Assembly (NCBI GenBank): GCA_001822695.1
Contig: MHSF01000023.1
Span: 1,257-43,335, forward strand
Source: Candidatus Taylorbacteria bacterium RIFCSPLOWO2_02_FULL_44_35
GTDB lineage: Bacteria; Patescibacteriota; Minisyncoccia; Phycocordibacterales; DSPV01
Reading direction: 5' to 3'
DNA length: 42,079 bases
Shown: piece after piece, positions 13,314 to 22,351 of the stretch
Layout of the letters: the number at the start of each line of letters is the position of its first letter
Position numbering within the stretch: position 1 is the first letter of the stretch
The notes under the pieces: generated by a model
Databases searched by the model: none
What the model was told of the DNA's origin: nothing
Seen by the model: the letters and a program-made list of their open reading frames with translations, nothing else
Program-made: the position numbers and the translations under genes

Positions 13314-15428
13314 TCATTTTTTCGATTCAATTTTTTCAATAATTTTTTCGGCAAACTTTGCACTATCAAAGCCAATAATTTCGCAACCTAGTTCCCGGGC
13401 CGCGCCGACATCAGTGGAAATTACCGATAGACCGGCGGCTCGCGCTTCCGCCATTGTCAAACCATAACCCTCGTACAAAGAAGTGTTCAAAAAAACATCG
13501 GCGGTTTTGTAATAAGGTGCCAAATTATCCAACCATTTTTCAAAAATAATACTATCTTGTAACTTGTAACGTATAACTTGTAACTTTAAGACACCGAGGA
13601 GGGAGCCGGAACCGACGATGACGAGACCAACATGGGGAAATTTTTTAACCACTGCCCGCCAAGCGTCAAGCAATAAGCTAAAATTTTTCTCCGGCTCCAA
13701 ACGACCGGCGGCTAAAGCGATAAAATTAAACTGGGGATATTTTTTTCGCAAATCATTTTCCGGCGAAATGGTGGTATTTTTGATTTTTTCTCCATCAATT
13801 TTTATGGGTCTAATCTCAATTTTATCTTCGGCAATTTTTAGATGGGGCTGGAGAAAATTTTTAATTCTGTTTGAAACAACCCTGATTTTATCGGCCCTGG
13901 GCAGTAAAAACTTTGCCAACTGAAAACGCAAAAAATTTAAAAATGCCAAGCGCCAGCCAAGTTTCAAGCTGGTAAAAAAAGGACTGCCAAGGTCGGTGTG
14001 AATTTGCAATTTTAGTGGAATCTTAAATTTTTTCGCCAATCGCCAACCAACTAAACCGGTTTCAAACGGGTCCTGACAGGTAATCAGACAATTTCTAATT
14101 TCTAATCCCCAATTTCTAATGACTGATTTACCGAGGCGAATGGCGTCAAAAACATAGAAAAATTTTGAAAATGAACTGGTGGGATACACAAAAACATTTT
14201 TGGAGATCTGTCCCGATTTTGCTTTGCAAAATCGAGGATCCTCGATTTTTGTAAACAAAAATCGGGAGAATTGGGAATTTTTCTTGTTGAAAATTATTAT
14301 ATGTATTTCGCCAAAAAGCTTGCCATATTCAATCATCCGCGCCTGGACGGCACTGCCCTCTTCAAAAATCTTCCTATCGGTAGAAATCATCAGAAGTTTG
14401 TCCGTCTTGCCCGTTGCGCCATTATGCAATTCAGAATAAACAGCTAAAAATTCGTTGGCAATGTCGCGCCAAGTGTGAGTCCAATTGAAATTTTCAATCT
14501 TTTGCCGGCACTGTTCGTAATTTTTTTCTTCAGCTAAATATGAAATCTTTTCGGCAATGTCATTGGTATTTTCCGGGTCCACAAAAAGACCAACATTTCT
14601 CAAGCGTTCGTAAAGTCCGGTTTCTCTGGTTAAAATAAACGGCTTATTATGACGAATGGCGTCTAAAATCAAATTGGGGCTGACATCGCCGAGTGACGCC
14701 AAAATCACGGCATAACAATGAGCCACTTTCTCCATAAATTTATCAAACGGCTTAGTAGTGTCATCATAAACAATCGCCGCGTTTTTGATTTTGGTTTTCT
14801 CAAAAGCCGCCGCCAATCGTTTGGCGTTTTTCCATTTGAGCGGCCTCGCGCCAGCGATATAATTCTTTTCCGTTGGTGGAAAAGACGGCTCTTTTTGCCC
14901 ATAATAATTTTCTACGATCGTAGTTTTCGCTTCATCAAAACCATAAACCGGCAACCAAATTTTTCTTTGCCAATCGGTGCTAAAAATCAAGCGGCTGGCG
15001 TTTCGTACCGTCCAACACGAGAGTTTGAAAACAATTCTCTCTTTTAAATTCAACTTGTCCAACCGTGTTCGGTAGAAATTTTTGAGTAGAACCAAATCGC
15101 CGGTCCGCTCCACATACCATTCCCACAAAAAATCACCACCGGTGCGGATAATAATTTTTTTGCCCAAAAATCGCGCCGCCGCCACTGCCGGCATGGCCAC
15201 GCTAAAAGTGTCCAACGCCACTACTAAATCAGATCTAGGAAAAAACAGGAAGCAACGCAAGAAAAACCAAATATGGCGAACCACCATTGGCAAATTTTTC
15301 TCCAATTGATAAGTCAAAATTTTAACGTTGTGTCCTTGCGCCTCAAATTCCACCTTCAAATTTTTGGCGTATTGGGCCGGTCCTCCGATTTCCGGCGGGT
15401 ATATGCCCGTAGCGATAACGATTTTCAT
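13314..15428 (-). CDS. double GT-B glycosyltransferase (two GT4-like modules fused)
   Basis: 704 aa. N-terminus MKIVIATGIYPPEIGGPAQY. Second module begins KLLMISTDRKIFEEGS... and has a C-terminal YEGYGLTMAEARAAGLSVIST motif. Confidence 0.7.
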   Translation of the reverse strand: MKIVIATGIYPPEIGGPAQYAKNLKVEFEAQGHNVKILTYQLEKNLPMVVRHIWFFLRCFLFFPRSDLVVALDTFSVAMPAVAAARFLGKKIIIRTGGDFLWEWYVERTGDLVLLKNFYRTRLDKLNLKERIVFKLSCWTVRNASRLIFSTDWQRKIWLPVYGFDEAKTTIVENYYGQKEPSFPPTEKNYIAGARPLKWKNAKRLAAAFEKTKIKNAAIVYDDTTKPFDKFMEKVAHCYAVILASLGDVSPNLILDAIRHNKPFILTRETGLYERLRNVGLFVDPENTNDIAEKISYLAEEKNYEQCRQKIENFNWTHTWRDIANEFLAVYSELHNGATGKTDKLLMISTDRKIFEEGSAVQARMIEYGKLFGEIHIIIFNKKNSQFSRFLFTKIEDPRFCKAKSGQISKNVFVYPTSSFSKFFYVFDAIRLGKSVIRNWGLEIRNCLITCQDPFETGLVGWRLAKKFKIPLKLQIHTDLGSPFFTSLKLGWRLAFLNFLRFQLAKFLLPRADKIRVVSNRIKNFLQPHLKIAEDKIEIRPIKIDGEKIKNTTISPENDLRKKYPQFNFIALAAGRLEPEKNFSLLLDAWRAVVKKFPHVGLVIVGSGSLLGVLKLQVIRYKLQDSIIFEKWLDNLAPYYKTADVFLNTSLYEGYGLTMAEARAAGLSVISTDVGAARELGCEIIGFDSAKFAEKIIEKIESKK
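13556..13588. repeat. degenerate copy of the AACTTGT heptamer array
   Basis: cttgt aacttgt aacgtat aacttgt aacttta, located within CDS 13314-15428. Confidence 0.85.
14091..14118. repeat. heptanucleotide array ATTTCTA (x3 plus one divergent unit) inside a CDS
   Basis: atttcta atttcta atcccca atttcta. Confidence 0.85.
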
Positions 15429-17233: not shown

Positions 17234-18247
17234 TTAGCACACAATCTGTTTTGCTCCCCAGAAATCAAGGATGGTTTCCGTTAATTGATAACAATTTCCA
17301 CACTTCAAAAGCCCGAGGTAAGAAGTGATTGATTCCTGTTTCGGATTTTCTACCAAACGCTTAAACATTCTTCTTTTTGTTGTCATCCGCAAAACTCGGT
17401 GGTTGGGAAAATGAACCCAACCCAAAAAATCCGCGCCCGAAGCAACAGTTTTGATAAAGATTTTATCAATATTAATTTCCAGTTTTAGTGTGTCCCGCAA
17501 AAAGTTTTTCATTTGGAACAAAATTTCCTCAAGCCAAGTCCTACTTTCCGAAAAAACAACAAAATCATCGGCGTAGCGGATGTAAAATTTCGCTTTTATC
17601 TTATGCTTCATAAATTGGTCAAATTCGTTAAGGTAAATGTTGGCGAATAATTGCGAAGTTAAATTGCCGAGTGGCAAACCTCTTCCGTAAAAACCAGCGG
17701 TGTAAAAACTGTTGATGATTTCAGCGAGAAGTTGAATAATTTCTTCATCAAAAATTCGCTTGCGTAAAATTCGCAATAAGATTCCGTGGTCAATATTGGC
17801 AAAAAACTTCCTGATGTCGCATTTCAAAACCCAACAGGATTTTGTATTGTTTTTGCTAACTTTCCAGACAAATGTACGAAAACGATTGATAGCTTTGTGA
17901 GTTCCTTTTTCGTTTCGGCAGGAAAAAGAATCGGCAATGAAAGTTTGGTCAAAAAATGGATAAAGTTTTCGATATACGGCTCGATGAAGCAAGCGGTCGC
18001 GAACACTTGCCTTGTGAATATTTCTTGGCTTCGGGTCAGAAATTCTGAAAGCTCGGTAACTACCGTGGCGATAGGTTTTTGCTCGCAAATCATTATGAAG
18101 CGAAATGACATTATCCATCAGACGCAAACTAAATTCCTGCACATCCAGCTTTTTTCTTTTTCCTTTCACAAATTCTCTCCAAGCGCCGAGCAAGTCTTCC
18201 AAAGAAATGATATCCTCGTAGCTATGGTTGAATTGAATCCCACTCAT
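17234..18247 (-). CDS. DGR reverse transcriptase (intact)
   Basis: LPLGNLTSQLFANIYLNEFD (DGR-diagnostic [IL]G.LTSQ motif), YADDFVVF catalytic box, and an N-terminal LLGAWREFVKGKRKK..PKPRNIHKASVRDRLLHRAV. Collinear with Bordetella phage Brt as recalled. The ATG at 18247 (MSGIQF) is preferred over 18322, which would overlap avd. Confidence 0.93.
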   Translation of the reverse strand: MSGIQFNHSYEDIISLEDLLGAWREFVKGKRKKLDVQEFSLRLMDNVISLHNDLRAKTYRHGSYRAFRISDPKPRNIHKASVRDRLLHRAVYRKLYPFFDQTFIADSFSCRNEKGTHKAINRFRTFVWKVSKNNTKSCWVLKCDIRKFFANIDHGILLRILRKRIFDEEIIQLLAEIINSFYTAGFYGRGLPLGNLTSQLFANIYLNEFDQFMKHKIKAKFYIRYADDFVVFSESRTWLEEILFQMKNFLRDTLKLEINIDKIFIKTVASGADFLGWVHFPNHRVLRMTTKRRMFKRLVENPKQESITSYLGLLKCGNCYQLTETILDFWGAKQIVC

Positions 18248-18277
18248 TCTATAAAGGTTACCCCCCCCCAACGCTTT
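18248..18277. promoter_or_regulatory. 30-bp RT/avd divergent spacer containing a C9 homopolymer (18261-18269)
   Basis: tctataaaggttaCCCCCCCCCaacgcttt lies between the RT ATG and the avd TTG. The paralogous spacer at 20629-20657 carries C8. Confidence 0.4.
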
Positions 18278-18661
18278 TTGCCAGTGGTGGAGAAACTTAA
18301 ACAAGGATATTTTCTTTGGCACCAGTGCCTTGAACTTTTGCCAAAGACCCAGAAATATTCCATTGGTAATCGTATAGATAAACTTTTGATTGAAAGTATT
18401 GAAGCCGCGGTAACTGCCACCTTTTTGCCAAAAGAGGAAAAACTGCCGTGGCTGCGATTAGCTATAAGAAAATTGGATACAGCAAAAGTTCTCCTTATGA
18501 TTGTGTGGGAAACAAAATCTTTGGATGATAAAAAAATCGTCGGGCTTTCAGAAATTTTAAATGATGCCGGTAAAATGCTCGGCGGTTGGAATGGCCAACT
18601 ACAAAAATACTTAAGAGAAAACTCCCCCAGAATTGCCCGAGGGCAAACGGGGGAGAAATGA
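18278..18661 (+). CDS. avd: Avd-like accessory variability determinant (four-helix-bundle protein), copy 1, TTG start
   Basis: LPKTQKYSIGNRID...KLDTAKVLL..WETKSLDDKK...LGGW. The same pattern appears in copy 2 at roughly half identical residues by eye. Only the 3' 384 nt of ORF 17786-18661 is used. Confidence 0.85.
   Translation: MPVVEKLKQGYFLWHQCLELLPKTQKYSIGNRIDKLLIESIEAAVTATFLPKEEKLPWLRLAIRKLDTAKVLLMIVWETKSLDDKKIVGLSEILNDAGKMLGGWNGQLQKYLRENSPRIARGQTGEK
18622..18655 (-). terminator. hairpin plus U-run immediately 3' of TR1, embedded in the avd1 3' end
   Basis: CTCCCCC...GGGGGAG outer stem with inner TTGCCC/GGGCAA. The minus-strand reading is followed by a T-run. The structure, but not the sequence, is conserved in cassette 2. 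Confidence 0.5.
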
Positions 18662-18667
18662 AGAGAG

Positions 18668-18793
18668 TTGCGACACGGCAAACGCAAACCCATTCTCATG
18701 ATTCCACTTGTTGTCGGGGTTGTCGTAGTAAGCGTTAAGCCACTGACCATTGTCGTTACGATTCGCGCTGAGCAGATTCGGGTCGCCGTCAGA
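18668..18793 (-). repeat. DGR template repeat TR1
   Basis: 126 nt. Asn-codon-rich (AAT/AAC) in the minus-strand sense. Aligns to 19122-19250 with 13 mismatches at TR adenines. Confidence 0.85.
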
Positions 18794-18857
18794 AATGTGC
18801 AGAATGCCTCCCATTTCACCACCCCTTGAATACTCTCGGGGTTGTATCGCATTCGGC

Positions 18858-18885
18858 ATCACAATGCCTTAGTATCTTGCACCAA
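18858..18885 (-). promoter_or_regulatory. candidate TR1 promoter (TTGGTG-16 nt-TGTGAT)
   Basis: Both hexamers and the spacing are conserved with cassette 2 (TTGGTG-16-TATGAT at 21225-21252). Confidence 0.35.
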
Positions 18886-19021
18886 GTATCTTCATTTTTT
18901 TTATTTTACGCGTGTCACTCCGTTTGAATTCTTAAACACAAACGCTCTCAACGCGCGGATACTGGATTCGGCGGAAAGAAACCATAGTCCCTTTCGGATT
19001 GGCCTACTACCGTGGCTTAGT

Positions 19022-19058
19022 ATACAAAAACTCTCGCCTGCTTGACACGGGCGAGAGT
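19022..19058 (-). terminator. intrinsic terminator of target gene 1
   Basis: ACTCTCGCC / GGCGAGAGT 9-bp stem followed by TTTTTG on the minus strand. Confidence 0.65.
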
Positions 19059-19121
19059 GTGAAAAAACTTAAGTCAAGGGACAGAGGGCTAGCGCAAAGG
19101 GTCCTAGGACTTAGCTCTAAC

Positions 19122-19250
19122 TTGCGACACGGCAAACGCAAACCCACTCCCATGATTCCACTAGTTGTCGGGGCGGAAGTCGTCGTCCGCGTCAAGCCAC
19201 TGACCAGTGCCGCCACGACTCGCGCTGAGCAGACGCGGGTCGCCGTCAGA
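19122..19250 (-). repeat. DGR variable repeat VR1
   Basis: Adenine-poor counterpart of TR1, lying at the 3' end of the 19104-19730 reading frame. Confidence 0.85.
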
Positions 19251-19730
19251 GTCGTGCACGGGTTCGTGCATGGCAACGATCCAGATCAGCCCCATGGCTG
19301 CGATCTCCTTGTCCGTGAACTTCTCACGGATGAGGCAGACCAGTTCGGCGTTCGGCTTCGAGAGCTTGCGCTTGTCGGCCTCGGCGCGAATCTTCTTCGT
19401 GATCCGATCGTTGTCCTCGAAGAGCATGCCCTTGAGAACGGCGACTTCAGTCGTCATGCCATTGGTCGGCTTGAAGTCCGGCGAACGGAGCACCTGCTTG
19501 GCGTAGTTTCTGACGCGGAAACAGTTGCCTTCCAGACGCTTGATCCAGTCTTCGCCGGTCGTGCCGTCGGAGGTGACACTGAAGTAGATGACACCGTCTT
19601 CCTCGAGCCACGAACGGGTCGGTTCCGAAACCGAGAGTTCATTGCGGAGAAAACGGTCAACCCCTTCCTCCCCGCCGAGTTTGTTCCAGACCGCTTCCAC
19701 GCGGCCGAGGGTAATATCGGGATATTTCAT
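19161..19730 (-). CDS. DGR target protein 1 (C-terminal VR), currently truncated by an in-frame TAG inside VR1
   Basis: Protein-like 189-aa ORF. The frame continues for 18 more codons to 19104 after the TAG at 19161-19163. Full length would be 208 aa, identical to target 2. Confidence 0.8.
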   Translation of the reverse strand: MKYPDITLGRVEAVWNKLGGEEGVDRFLRNELSVSEPTRSWLEEDGVIYFSVTSDGTTGEDWIKRLEGNCFRVRNYAKQVLRSPDFKPTNGMTTEVAVLKGMLFEDNDRITKKIRAEADKRKLSKPNAELVCLIREKFTDKEIAAMGLIWIVAMHEPVHDSDGDPRLLSASRGGTGQWLDADDDFRPDN

Positions 19731-19918
19731 AATATAATTGCCTTTCGTTCAACTGCTAGTTGTGGTTTATTCACCTCTTCCAGAAGTGAATGCTAGGCCG
19801 TTGTGGTCATAGCCAGAAATCCCCAGAAAAGGTGAGGGACTTTTGGCTATGACCGCGGCAAGATTTCAAGGTTCATTGAATTATGGATTATTCTAACAAA
19901 CACCGCCCCAAATTTCTG
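19731..19918 (-). promoter_or_regulatory. structured 5' leader of target gene 1
   Basis: 11-bp stem GGTCATAGCCA/TGGCTATGACC (19805-19815 / 19844-19854), plus the TGAACCTTGAAA box shared with the other target leaders. Confidence 0.4.
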
Positions 19919-20029
19919 CCCGAAATACTACCATAATTGCGCCATAAAAGTCAAGCAAAAATACGAAATATGGCTTTAAATAAAGGTATCTTGGCAAGGG
20001 GAAAATACATAAATAAAAAGGAAGCCGCG
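19916..20029. repeat. 114-bp duplicated promoter module (copy 1)
   Basis: Near-identical to 22238-22351. The first ~68 nt are identical by eye. Confidence 0.85.
19925..19954 (-). promoter_or_regulatory. target-gene promoter (TTGACT-18 nt-TAGTAT)
   Basis: Lies within a 114-bp module near-identical to 22238-22351. A third target-like gene has TTGACA-17-TAGCAT at the equivalent place. Confidence 0.6.
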
Positions 20030-20117: not shown

Positions 20118-20628
20118 CTAACCATGTTCAAAAATTCGCTTGCGTAAAATTCGTAATAAGATTCCGTGGTCAATACTGGCAAAGAATTTTCTGATGTCGT
20201 ATTTCAAAATCCAGCAGGTCTTGGTGTTGTTTTTGCTGACTTTCCAAACAAATCTACGAAAACGGTTGATGGTTTTGTGAGTTCCCTTTTCGTTTCGGCA
20301 GGAAAAAGAATCGGCAATAAATGTCTGGTCAAAGAATGGGTAAAGTTTTCGGTAAACAGCACGATGAAGTAAGCGGTTGCGAGCACTTGCTTTGTGTATG
20401 TTTCTTGGCTTCGGGTCAGAAATTCTGAAAGCTCGGTAACCTACCGTGGCGATAGGTTTTTGCTCGCAAATCATTATGAAGCGAAATGACATTATCCATC
20501 AGACGCAAACTAAATTCCTGCACATCCAGCTTTTTTCTTTTTCCTTTCACGAATTCTTGCCAAGCGCCGAGCAAATTTTCTGAAGAAATGATATCCTCGT
20601 AACTATGGTTGAATTGAATCCCATTCAT
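20118..20628 (-). pseudogene. DGR reverse transcriptase stub (N-terminal ~170 codons, frameshifted, no catalytic motifs)
   Basis: About 90% nt identity to 17747-18247. One extra C near 20440 splits it into ORFs 20118-20492 and 20416-20724. Homology stops at 20128, so the LTSQ and YADD motifs are absent. Confidence 0.9.
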
Positions 20629-20657
20629 TCTATAAAGGTTACCCCCCCCAACGCTTT

Positions 20658-21020
20658 TTGCCAGTGGTGGAAAAAACTTTATCGGCATACAAACTCTGGC
20701 AGGAAATATTGAAACTTTTTCCAAAAACGACGCGCTATTCTCTAGGTATAAAGATTGATGTTCTTTTCATTGAAATTTTTGAGTCAATTTCGACCGCGGC
20801 ATTTGCCGCCAAAACTGAAAAATCACCTTGGGTTCGGCGGGCAATAATAAAACTAGATACTTTAAAAGGTCTGCTACGGATAGCGTGGGAAATCAAATCA
20901 CTGGATAACAAGAAATATATCACCTTATCAGAACAACTTTCTGAAATCGGCCGCCAGCTTGGCGGTTGGCATAATCAGATTATAAAACAAAACTCTCCCG
21001 CAAAAGCGGGAGAGAAATGA
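20658..21020 (+). CDS. avd: Avd-like accessory variability determinant, copy 2, TTG start
   Basis: 120 aa. FPKTTRYSLGIKID...KLDTLKGLL..WEIKSLDNKK...LGGW. Confidence 0.85.
   Translation: MPVVEKTLSAYKLWQEILKLFPKTTRYSLGIKIDVLFIEIFESISTAAFAAKTEKSPWVRRAIIKLDTLKGLLRIAWEIKSLDNKKYITLSEQLSEIGRQLGGWHNQIIKQNSPAKAGEK
20993..21014 (-). terminator. hairpin plus U-run immediately 3' of TR2, embedded in the avd2 3' end
   Basis: CTCTCCCGC aaaa GCGGGAGAG, a perfect 9-bp stem. The minus-strand reading is followed by TTTTGTTTTAT. Confidence 0.55.
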
Positions 21021-21024
21021 GGAT

Positions 21025-21158
21025 ACTGGCGGGCAGACCGCCGAAGGGTTGTAGTCGTTCCAATCGTTGTCAAGCCAGTTGTAATTCCAGTGCCACTTGC
21101 CATCATTCCAGTACAGATACAACACATAACGGTTACCGTTCGGATTACGAAGAATCGT
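21025..21158 (-). repeat. DGR template repeat TR2
   Basis: 134 nt, rich in AAC/AAT/TAT codons. Aligns without gaps to 21484-21617 (offset 459). Confidence 0.9.
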
Positions 21159-21224
21159 ATAAAGTGTCTTCTGTTCCACCACCCCTCGAAGCTTTCGCGA
21201 TCTTGGGATTGAATCGTATTCGGC

Positions 21225-21252
21225 ATCATAATGCCCTAACACTTTACACCAA
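21225..21252 (-). promoter_or_regulatory. candidate TR2 promoter (TTGGTG-16 nt-TATGAT)
   Basis: Conserved with 18858-18885. Confidence 0.35.
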
Positions 21253-21395
21253 GTAACTTCATTTTTTGAAGTGTCTTCATACACCACTCTATCCAAAACC
21301 TTAGTTGTGGATACTCACGATGTATGGATACTGGATTCGGTAGCGGAAAACCGTAATCTCCCGCGTATTCACCTACTGCCGCAGATAATTTTAGC

Positions 21396-21427
21396 ATAAA
21401 AAAGACCCCGCGTTCGAAAACACGGGG
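21396..21427 (-). terminator. intrinsic terminator of target gene 2
   Basis: CCCCGUG/CGCGGGG stem (one G-U pair) followed by UCUUUUUUAUG on the minus strand. Confidence 0.65.
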
Positions 21428-21467
21428 CCGAGAACTAAATTCAAAGGATTCAAAAGACCTAAACGAC

Positions 21468-22094
21468 CTAGTTCTGAGGACTAACTTGCGGGCAGACCGC
21501 CGAAGGGTAGTAGTCGTACCAAGCGCGGTCAAGCCAGCGGTAATACCAGTGCCACTCGCCACCAGACCAGTCCAGAGACAACACAGAACGGTTACCGTAC
21601 GGACTACGAAGAATTGTGCCGTCAAAGAAAATATAGGTCGTATTGTCATTCGTCTTTTTCTTCCAACTTTCTGGAATAAGAGTTTTATCATTCCAGAGAG
21701 TCTCGAAAACCTTGGCGTTCAGACAAATGTGGCCCGCTTTCTTGAGACGCTTCAGCTTCTCCTCCCCGTTGATACTGATCTCATCTTTTTTGAGCATCGT
21801 CTCAAGACGAATTTTGCTGAAATCCACCTCTGTGAGAGCGAGCGACCGCTTGTCTTCCTCGTCTATGGTCCAACCACTACCGATAAACTCGGCGGGGTTG
21901 AAAGGGGTGGTGCGGTCGACGATGACCAGAATTCCAGCTTTCTGACTAAAGTGTTTGACCAAGTCGGACCAGAGGGGGTGGTCGGATGACTCGATGATAG
22001 ACTGAATTTCCTCCCCGTCTGCCTTCATTGCGCCAAGCTTTTCAGCGACAAGTTTCCCCATCTCAAACTGCTGACCGATTGTAATTATGTTCAT
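21468..22094 (-). CDS. DGR target protein 2 (C-terminal VR)
   Basis: 208 aa from the ATG at 22094 (MNIITIG). VR2 ends 13 nt before the stop codon. The N-terminal SSDHPLWSDLVKHFSQK motif is shared with the 28547-29189 paralogue. Confidence 0.85.
   Translation of the reverse strand: MNIITIGQQFEMGKLVAEKLGAMKADGEEIQSIIESSDHPLWSDLVKHFSQKAGILVIVDRTTPFNPAEFIGSGWTIDEEDKRSLALTEVDFSKIRLETMLKKDEISINGEEKLKRLKKAGHICLNAKVFETLWNDKTLIPESWKKKTNDNTTYIFFDGTILRSPYGNRSVLSLDWSGGEWHWYYRWLDRAWYDYYPSAVCPQVSPQN
21484..21617 (-). repeat. DGR variable repeat VR2
   Basis: 16 of 17 internal mismatches to TR2 are at TR adenines (hand alignment). Confidence 0.9.
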
Positions 22095-22240
22095 TCGTTG
22101 AAACCGCAATAACGGCGGACCGTGTCATCTCGTAGCGAGAGCTTATCGGCTGATCGTTAGTTGCGGAAAACAAACCATTTCATCAAAAAAACGGGTTGTA
22201 TTCCGCAACCAATTAAGCACTTTCAAAGTTCATTTAACTG
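22095..22240 (-). promoter_or_regulatory. structured 5' leader of target gene 2
   Basis: GTTGCGGAA...TTCCGCAAC hairpin (22160-22209), a conserved TCAGCCGATAAG box, and a third TTGCGG segment (22104-22109) next to the start codon. The same layout is seen at 29190-29337. Confidence 0.45.
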
Positions 22241-22351
22241 CCCGAAATACTACCATAATTGCGCCATAAAAGTCAAGCAAAAATACGAAATATGGCTTTA
22301 AATAAGGATATTTAGCAATAGAGAAATGCGTAAATAAAAGAGGAAGCCGCG
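22238..22351. repeat. 114-bp duplicated promoter module (copy 2)
   Basis: See 19916-20029. Confidence 0.85.
22247..22276 (-). promoter_or_regulatory. target-gene promoter (TTGACT-18 nt-TAGTAT), copy 2
   Basis: Identical to 19925-19954. Confidence 0.6.

Follow-up and report, generated by a model that had tools for sequence, protein, structure and literature searches.

We analysed a 42,079-nucleotide window of Candidatus Taylorbacteria bacterium RIFCSPLOWO2_02_FULL_44_35 (GenBank assembly GCA_001822695.1, contig MHSF01000023.1, positions 1,257 to 43,335 of the forward strand), which carries a candidate diversity-generating retroelement (DGR) built around a template repeat (TR1) and a variable repeat (VR1). 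The window is cellular DNA, with argS and glycosyltransferase genes on one side and tmk, glyA, thyA and folA on the other. TR1, VR1 and cassette sequences are all given in the minus-strand sense. Read in this direction, cassette 1 consists of a promoter-like site, target gene 1 with VR1, a hairpin, a −10-like box, a leader, TR1, a second hairpin, avd1 (encoded on the plus strand), a tract of nine G residues (G9) and the reverse transcriptase gene RT1 (Table 1). A second cassette lies in tandem, immediately upstream of the first (window 20118-22351).

VR1 spans codons 161-203 of the 208-codon reading frame of target gene 1, and TR1 is non-coding: it lies between a conserved leader and a hairpin, with no homologous open reading frame (ORF) around it. 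We considered a long minus-strand ORF (18244-18852) as a gene and rejected it; it contains TR1 in a non-target frame, has no Pfam match, is closed in cassette 2 and runs antisense to the homology-supported avd. The reverse transcriptases (RTs) of DGRs are recognized by [I/L]GxxxSQ in motif 4 together with the catalytic YxDD. The translation of RT1 contains LGNLTSQ and YADD and matches Pfam RVT_1 (E = 7e-28), and its homologues align from the ATG at 18247. Its best NCBIfam match is a group II intron RT, below the cut-off of that model, and we take the DGR type from the motifs. The avd1 product matches DivGenRetAVD (E = 1.4e-13) and bAvd (E = 1e-7), both below the curated cut-offs, and avd occupies the same position and strand in about 30 related loci.

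TR1 reads SDGDPNLLSANRNDNGQWLNAYYDNPDNKWNHENGFAFAVSQ and VR1 reads SDGDPRLLSASRGGTGQWLDADDDFRPDN*WNHGSGFAFAVSQ, an exact match to the peptide strings given in an earlier account made from the letters without database searches (the sequence-only reading). A computed local alignment of the 126 nt of TR1 with the 129 nt of VR1 contains 16 substitutions and one 3-nt insertion in VR1. When the mismatches are tabulated by TR base, they are spread unevenly over the four bases, with 13 of 16 at adenines in a template that holds 33 A in 126 nt (binomial p = 6.6e-6). The ten codon changes that the sequence-only reading listed are all present and together make up these 13 substitutions; its list left out three T>G changes and an extra VR1 codon, although its own peptide strings show both. 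The 24 nt at the 3′ end (GGGTTTGCGTTTGCCGTGTCGCAA) are identical in the two repeats, as had been noted, and the homology stops exactly after CAA, followed by GTTAGAGC in VR and CTCTCTTC in TR. The initiation of mutagenic homing element (IMH) and its counterpart (IMH*) are indistinguishable inside the repeat, and the hairpin 3′ of target gene 1 (19026-19057) resembles a terminator.

We compared the window with 15 other contigs of the same strain (n = 16 with the window, which may be the same record as one of the 15). These contigs come from Rifle aquifer samples and include NCBI assemblies GCA_001822705.1 and GCA_001820965.1. Among their sources are samples SAMN03842430, -31, -35, -36 and -37 and assemblies of the ERZ27254xxx and ERZ4903xxx series. 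TR1 is identical over 126/126 nt in all 15, and VR1 occurs as five alleles among the 16. The window allele, A, is found in the window and 11 others; it combines the 13 adenine-site changes with three T>G changes, 3 additional nucleotides and an in-frame TAG stop. Allele A2 (L085) is like A minus the second change of the first of the ten listed codons (AAT>CGT in A), so that CAT remains there. Alleles B (L001) and C (L083) have 15 changes each and allele D (L084) has 9, every one of them at A. Taken together, B, C and D differ from TR1 at adenines in 39/39 cases, with no indel and no stop. In all, variation in VR1 touches 22 template adenines.

The surroundings of VR1 are nearly invariant in the same contigs. 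L083 and L084 (4.4 and 4.9 kb) differ from the window outside VR1 only in poly-G length and one single-nucleotide polymorphism (SNP), and in L001 (6.8 kb) the differences are the poly-G length, a single SNP and a small cluster of changes inside a glycosyltransferase gene. Because the flanks are identical or nearly so, VR1 is a hypervariable island in an otherwise clonal background, and its diversification is younger than almost any other mutation of the region. The cluster in the glycosyltransferase gene (window 13454-13517) comprises eight substitutions in 64 nt relative to L001, is without adenine bias and resembles a small recombination tract.

Target 1 has more than 1,657 homologues, most of them 203-211 aa long, which come almost entirely from Patescibacteria metagenome-assembled genomes (MAGs). 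With one genome taken per species, 250 loci encode a relative of target 1. We examined the best 80 of these (L003-L082), and about half have a TR within 2.5 kb. The order target, VR, spacer of about 340 nt, TR, antisense avd and RT is found again in about 30 loci, nearly all under Patescibacteria MAG labels and a few under others. Among 35 TR/VR pairs of the family that aligned cleanly, 561/581 mismatches are at adenines (A>G, 348; A>T, 150; A>C, 63), and no indels were found. Two further observations concern the target family itself. About half of the best 80 loci have no TR, avd or RT within the flanks examined, and identities of the target 1 protein between many Patescibacteria lineages reach 61-80%, an unusual degree of conservation for these genomes.

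An ordinary direct repeat, left by partial duplication of a gene and drifting without any link to a reverse transcriptase, would also give two similar copies, and duplication does occur here (a 2.37-kb unit is tandemly duplicated). The tabulated mismatch spectrum refutes this account: the adenine bias is strong in the window allele, complete in the three sister alleles and nearly so in the 35 relatives, one copy never varies while the other always does, and RT and avd genes are adjacent in every relative. We give this alternative practically no weight. The pair was first read as the template and variable repeat of a DGR, and that reading fits the intact RT1, the avd gene, the position of VR1 at the 3′ end of an ORF, the non-coding TR1 and the contrast between an invariant TR1 and a variable VR1. 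We conclude, with a probability of roughly 93%, that a groundwater bacterium of the Patescibacteria, or Candidate Phyla Radiation (CPR), carries on its chromosome a DGR that works or worked until very recently, with TR1 as its template repeat and VR1 as its variable repeat.

Judged by its sequence, the locus is a complete Patescibacteria-type DGR. In Wu et al. 2018 (PMC5758913), the order TR-(avd)-RT with avd reversed is architecture B3, which accounts for 90% of CPR DGRs, and Roux et al. 2021 (PMC8144416) describe a DGR clade 2 that is found only in Patescibacteria and has targets without recognizable domains. The cassette described here resembles the CPR DGRs of these two sources in its cellular host, groundwater origin and single small target without known domains, in the reversed avd between TR and RT, and in TR/VR differences that are adenine-specific but for an occasional non-A change or a 3-nt indel adjoining AAC. 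It differs from them in having two tandem cassettes, the upstream one with a truncated RT, and in that the prevailing VR1 is a nonsense allele.

The experimental paradigm is the DGR of Bordetella phage BPP-1 (mtd, avd, TR, brt), with which the locus shares an adenine-mutated TR/VR pair, a VR at the 3′ end of the target, an invariant template, an Avd partner and the RT motifs [I/L]GxxxSQ and YxDD. Unlike in BPP-1, avd is antisense and downstream of TR; the host is a cell and not a phage, the target is unrelated to Mtd by sequence, and IMH and IMH* cannot be told apart in the repeat. From the BPP-1 paradigm we infer the copying mechanism, the role of Avd, the boundaries of the RNA and the repair of stops. 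In such a scheme TR1 would be transcribed from its own promoter as the middle of a non-coding RNA of about 400 nt, made up of the 218-nt leader, the 126-nt template and the terminator-like hairpin. RT1 and Avd1 would copy the template into cDNA with random bases inserted opposite template adenines, and the cDNA would replace VR1 at the 3′ end of the target gene of about 207 codons while leaving TR1 untouched. A later round of retrohoming could repair an allele with a TAG.

Table 1. Features of the two cassettes, with positions in the window.
Feature	Position	Strand	Basis or remark
Promoter-like site of target gene 1 (TTGACT, 18 nt, TG-TAGTAT)	19925-19954	-	consensus match only
Target gene 1, to natural stop (19104-19106)	19104-19730	-	Patescibacteria family of about 207 aa; no Pfam domain
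VR1, variable repeat, 3′ end of target gene 1	19122-19250	-	129 nt; window allele with stop, three T>G and 3-nt insertion
In-frame TAG from TR codon AAG	19161-19163	-	target 1 cut to 189 aa, compared with about 207
Terminator-like hairpin and T run after target gene 1	19026-19057	-	read from sequence; equivalent after target gene 2 by scan
−10-like box TATACT ahead of TR1 leader	19019-19024	-	34-locus alignment; also found by promoter scan
Structured TR1 RNA leader (helices P1, P2, and P3 with two inner hairpins)	18794-19011	-	218 nt; 34-locus alignment and RNAalifold
TR1, template repeat	18668-18793	-	126-nt core; weak homology extends to 18801
Hairpin and GTTTT(C/G)T directly after TR1	18613-18657	-	overlaps avd1 stop codon (other strand); terminator-like by scan
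avd1, four-helix-bundle accessory protein, antisense between TR1 and RT1	18278-18661	+	NCBIfam DivGenRetAVD, Pfam bAvd
Poly-G/C tract between divergent avd1 and RT1 start codons	18261-18269		G9 on minus strand; ends 13 nt before RT1 ATG
RT1, intact DGR reverse transcriptase	17234-18247	-	337 aa from ATG; RVT_1, LGNLTSQ, YADD
VR2, in target gene 2 (21468-22109)	21484-21617	-	sequence repeat, alignment
TR2, with own leader (21152-21380) and hairpin (20984-21016)	21025-21158	-	repeat search, 34-locus alignment, RNAalifold
avd2	20658-21020	+	DivGenRetAVD E = 5.7e-18; bAvd E = 1.9e-12, above Pfam cut-off
RT2 remnant, N-terminal portion of about 170 codons	20118-20628	-	frameshift, no YxDD region; preceded by G8 tract (20642-20649)

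The window allele is atypical and probably arose by a non-canonical event. Its three T>G changes form a 5-nt cluster that turns GCT TAC TAC into GCG GAC GAC, and its extra codon adjoins the TR codon AAC. The codon AAG, from which the TAG derives, is the sole TR1 codon that adenine changes can convert into a stop. With 54% of A sites changed and 27% of the changes being to T, as in the family-wide spectrum, we estimate roughly that about 7% of full conversions would yield TAG at this codon. We considered recoding of this stop and rejected it: TAG terminates 8 of the 34 longest non-overlapping ORFs in the window, that of target gene 2 included, and the TAG in VR1 is therefore read as a stop. The 18-aa truncation deprives the product of the family-invariant GFAFAVSQ segment, and allele A is probably a null allele encoding a truncated target.

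Alleles A and B have all eight substitutions of the 5′ half in common, and their differences are confined to template positions from 62 on. The tract where A diverges from B opens with the three T>G changes and the insertion. This pattern fits 3′-anchored partial conversion with an imprecise or error-prone stretch. Alleles B and C agree in the 3′ half and not in the 5′ half, and the sites that allele D shares are scattered. Simple conversion from a 3′ anchor does not by itself account for all VR1 alleles, and patchy repair or recombination among alleles may have played a part.

Wu et al. (PMC5758913) report non-A changes in 23% of DGRs, with several such changes frequent in CPR DGRs, and indels in 7% of DGRs, of which 74% adjoin AAC in TR. 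Both kinds of change are ascribed there to the retrohoming process, and on these reports the non-A changes and the AAC indel of the window allele are known features. The kind of element, its gene order, non-A changes and AAC-adjacent indels have thus all been published already. It is also conceivable that the non-A changes and the insertion postdate retrohoming and arose by point mutation, slippage or recombination with the VR of another strain. Segments of the cassettes seem to be swapped between strains (L002, L091, L085), and the alleles are mosaic, A and B sharing a 5′ half and B and C a 3′ half. We consider such a later origin unlikely: all four changes (T>G three times and the insertion) fall in a 16-nt stretch at the border where A departs from B, so that one event fits better than four, and Wu et al. 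(PMC5758913) tie the AAC indels and the non-A changes of CPR DGRs to retrohoming. Moreover, a donor VR would carry GCGGACGACGACTTCCGC, and the extra codon is absent from the related VRs in the 35 loci.

The T>G change is otherwise rare (3/581 mismatches in the 35 loci). The conversion TAC>GAC, seen twice in the window VR1, recurs at the same codon in one relative (L071, template position 63) and occurs once in VR2 of cassette 2 (about 21575). Two candidate sources of the odd bases were set aside. TR2 was rejected as a donor since TR2 and VR2 belong to a different sequence family, and an antisense TR RNA was dropped as the source of T>G since the non-A changes in the 35 relatives have no T bias.

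Assembly could in principle have produced the odd 3′ half of the window allele (T>G three times, extra codon, TAG) by merging reads of several VR variants, or of VR and TR, into one consensus. Assemblies are known to break or go astray at VRs, contig L001 stops a little upstream of target gene 1, and a database protein, P0247, is chimeric, passing from VR1 through TR1 into the TR1 flank. The identical 129-nt allele is nevertheless present in 11 other contigs from different samples, with two naming styles (ANAN16 scaffolds and k141 contigs) and two NCBI assemblies, and a chimera of intact alleles cannot give G at three positions that are T in TR1, B, C and D. An assembly artefact is accordingly a highly improbable source of allele A. 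As to P0247 itself (source SRR3989344), it joins the 5′ part of VR1 to the TR1 3′ end and flank and ends in ...VSQLSSFLPRLPSGNSGGVFS; either the two repeats were collapsed in assembly or the VR/TR deletion is genuine.

The state of the window allele bears as well on whether the element is alive. The stop allele is present in 12 of the 16 contigs, from several samples and two NCBI genome assemblies, and RT1, avd1 and TR1 look intact. If the DGR were dead and VR1 a pseudogene gathering ordinary mutations, a stop, a 3-nt insertion and three non-A changes would be expected features of such a relic, as would the prevalence of this allele and the truncated pseudogene RT2 next door. Against this stand the RT1, avd1 and TR1 sequences and the flanking RNA structure, which are intact and identical in all contigs, and the three sister alleles, which differ from TR1 at adenines only. 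The near-identical flanks outside VR1 make the diversification recent, and even in the window allele 13/16 changes are at A. We regard a decaying relic as very unlikely and retain a working or very recently working DGR as the explanation.

Several points nonetheless weigh against that explanation. The three non-adenine changes, the indel and the premature stop of the window VR1 could by themselves suggest decay. Since the nonsense allele is in 12 of 16 contigs, most cells have not been rewritten recently at VR1. The 24-nt identity at the 3′ end holds just two adenines and is therefore expected with or without the putative IMH role that the sequence-only reading gave it. The AlphaFold model of target 1 has a mean confidence (pLDDT) of 51, too poor for a fold search, which leaves the C-type-lectin class of targets unsupported; target 1 also has no match in Pfam, NCBIfam or, searched as a family profile, among PDB sequences. 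Finally, VR2 does not vary between the window and 12 further contigs, nor among three members of a database protein cluster.

As a TR/VR pair alone, the locus is a textbook DGR and adds little. Its value is that of a natural snapshot: one strain seen in many assemblies, with a fixed template, five VR alleles and a dominant nonsense allele made by the mutator itself. The cost of adenine mutagenesis (a stop from a single AAG), partial or patchy conversion and non-canonical events are all measurable here from existing reads.

To describe the template RNA, we aligned 34 spacer-TR regions, both cassettes of the window included, whose targets are unrelated. The alignment contains a TATAAT-like box, a conserved start, a leader of about 220 nt, the TR and then a hairpin. 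The box lies 5-8 nt before a conserved GGyAGTAGGTGAATA start in most of the 34 loci, and the hairpin after TR is followed by GTTTTGTTTT and overlaps the avd stop codon. In the RNAalifold prediction, the leader has three helical domains, and the hairpin forms as well. For the 59 pairs outside TR, 96.5% of the cells are paired and 44/59 pairs show compensatory changes, values that none of 500 shuffles reached (0/500); when the structures are slid by 1-3 columns, only 38-50% of cells are paired. The post-TR hairpin has compensatory changes in 5/6 of its pairs, and the hairpin after TR2 in L085 differs yet still base-pairs. The long helix P3 stops a few nucleotides short of the point where TR/VR homology has its 5′ limit. 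Base pairing inside TR has marginal support only, and we make no claim for it. Searches of the leader and hairpin RNA against Rfam 15 gave no match at gathering scores and nothing relevant at E up to 1.

These features suggest that the TR is produced on a structured RNA of its own, about 400 nt long, which would run from about 19011 to about 18615 on the minus strand; RT1 transcripts would start at 18247 or slightly before it. In BPP-1 the TR lies inside an avd-TR-brt transcript, whereas here it has a promoter-like box, a covarying 218-nt leader and a terminator-like hairpin of its own. By analogy, the leader and hairpin would act as the flanking avd and spacer segments do in the Bordetella phage RNA. 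The arrangement also recalls retrons, whose reverse transcription product accumulates as multicopy single-stranded DNA (msDNA). As in the retron msr-msd RNA, the templated segment is flanked by a dedicated structured non-coding RNA, presumably the feature by which the RT recognizes it. There is no sequence or structural similarity to the retron RNA (no Rfam match), and the product here overwrites a gene and is not kept as msDNA. The covarying TR RNA may be new, within a limited check of the literature. If confirmed, the covarying leader and hairpin would provide a concrete RNA model of how CPR-type reverse transcriptases find their template.

A second conserved element lies between avd and RT. 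G/C runs of at least 8 occur only twice in the 42-kb window, once in each cassette, where they separate the divergent start codons of avd and RT. A simple-sequence repeat is present in this intergenic region (20-60 nt) in 29/29 related loci that have both genes; it is poly-G of 8-13 nt in 22, (GGTT)2-11 in four, (GATT)6 in one and (GGCT)6-8 in two. Related loci totalling 577 kb hold 28 G/C runs of at least 8, and 26 of these fall at the avd-RT position. In loci with poly-G, the distance from the end of the tract to the RT ATG is usually 13 nt (range 13-16), and the tract is followed by a −10-like hexamer.

The length of this tract varies within the strain. Of the 16 cassette 1 tracts, six are G8, seven G9 and three G10. 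The cassette 2 tract, which has identical flanks, is G8 in 13/13 contigs, and this constancy argues against a simple sequencing artefact. We saw no link between tract length and VR1 allele in the 16 contigs. On six contigs, G9 had been proposed as a frozen OFF state tied to the stop allele; ten more contigs refuted this, with allele A found together with G8, G9 and G10.

The Haemophilus hifA/hifB divergent promoter, with its (TA)n repeat, and the poly-G/C tracts of Neisseria are phase-variable contingency loci. The avd-RT repeat is like them in being a short tract in a region of 20-60 nt between divergent genes, in varying in length within one population (here G8, G9 and G10) and in its change of type between relatives (poly-G, GGTT, GATT, GGCT). 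It differs in that the controlled genes would be the mutator itself (RT and Avd) and not a surface antigen. The tract pattern is that of a contingency locus by its sequence, and the tract may affect the expression of RT or Avd.

We offer a tentative extension of these observations, with the odds somewhat against it. The hypermutable avd-RT repeat could set the DGR on or off, or adjust its volume, stochastically, so that the mutator would run in a subpopulation only; linked to this, TR would reach the RT as the separate structured RNA of about 400 nt, a kind of RNA that would be undescribed as a family. If true, a mutator confined to a subpopulation could account for the persistence of a nonsense VR1 in most cells alongside diversification in a few lineages. 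If confirmed, the avd-RT tract may represent slippage-driven on/off switching of a targeted mutator. The conserved hypervariable avd-RT repeat may be new, again as far as a limited literature check goes; neither it nor a structured TR leader appears in the available parts of PMC5758913 or PMC8144416.

Cassette 2 has the same promoter-like site upstream of target gene 2, within a repeat shared by the two cassettes (19916-20029 / 22238-22351). By eye, the alignment of TR2 with VR2 shows 16 mismatches at TR2 adenines and one T>G (TAC>GAC). Profile comparison finds no relation between target families 1 and 2. The model of target 2 is confident (pLDDT 86) and has no significant fold match in PDB or BFVD; there are weak C-type-lectin hits (E = 0.2-3, TM-score 0.4-0.5). 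Homology of RT2 to RT1 ends at about 20128 with one extra G, its ORFs are fragmented and RVT_1 covers profile positions 8-96 only. RT2 cannot function, and any rewriting of VR2 would therefore need RT1 in trans. A tandem second cassette with a truncated RT may also be new, within the same limited check of the literature. With the present TR2, VR2 shows no sign of current diversification in the contigs in which it was compared.

The RT2 fragment is 89-96% identical to RT1, and avd1 and avd2 have no extended DNA repeat in common, which suggests, from these sequence comparisons, that the tandem arrangement arose by recombination within the RT gene. Parts of the cassettes also appear replaced in three of the other contigs. 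In L091 (window 21242-21982), target 2 and TR2 have diverged (87% identity), and L091 has its own adenine-specific VR2. The 5′ half of target gene 1 has diverged in L002 (window 19407-19643), as have the TR2 end and its hairpin in L085 (equivalent to window 20978-21034). Because L085, L091 and L002 share the backbone yet carry replaced segments, we suggest that cassette parts are exchanged between strains by recombination.

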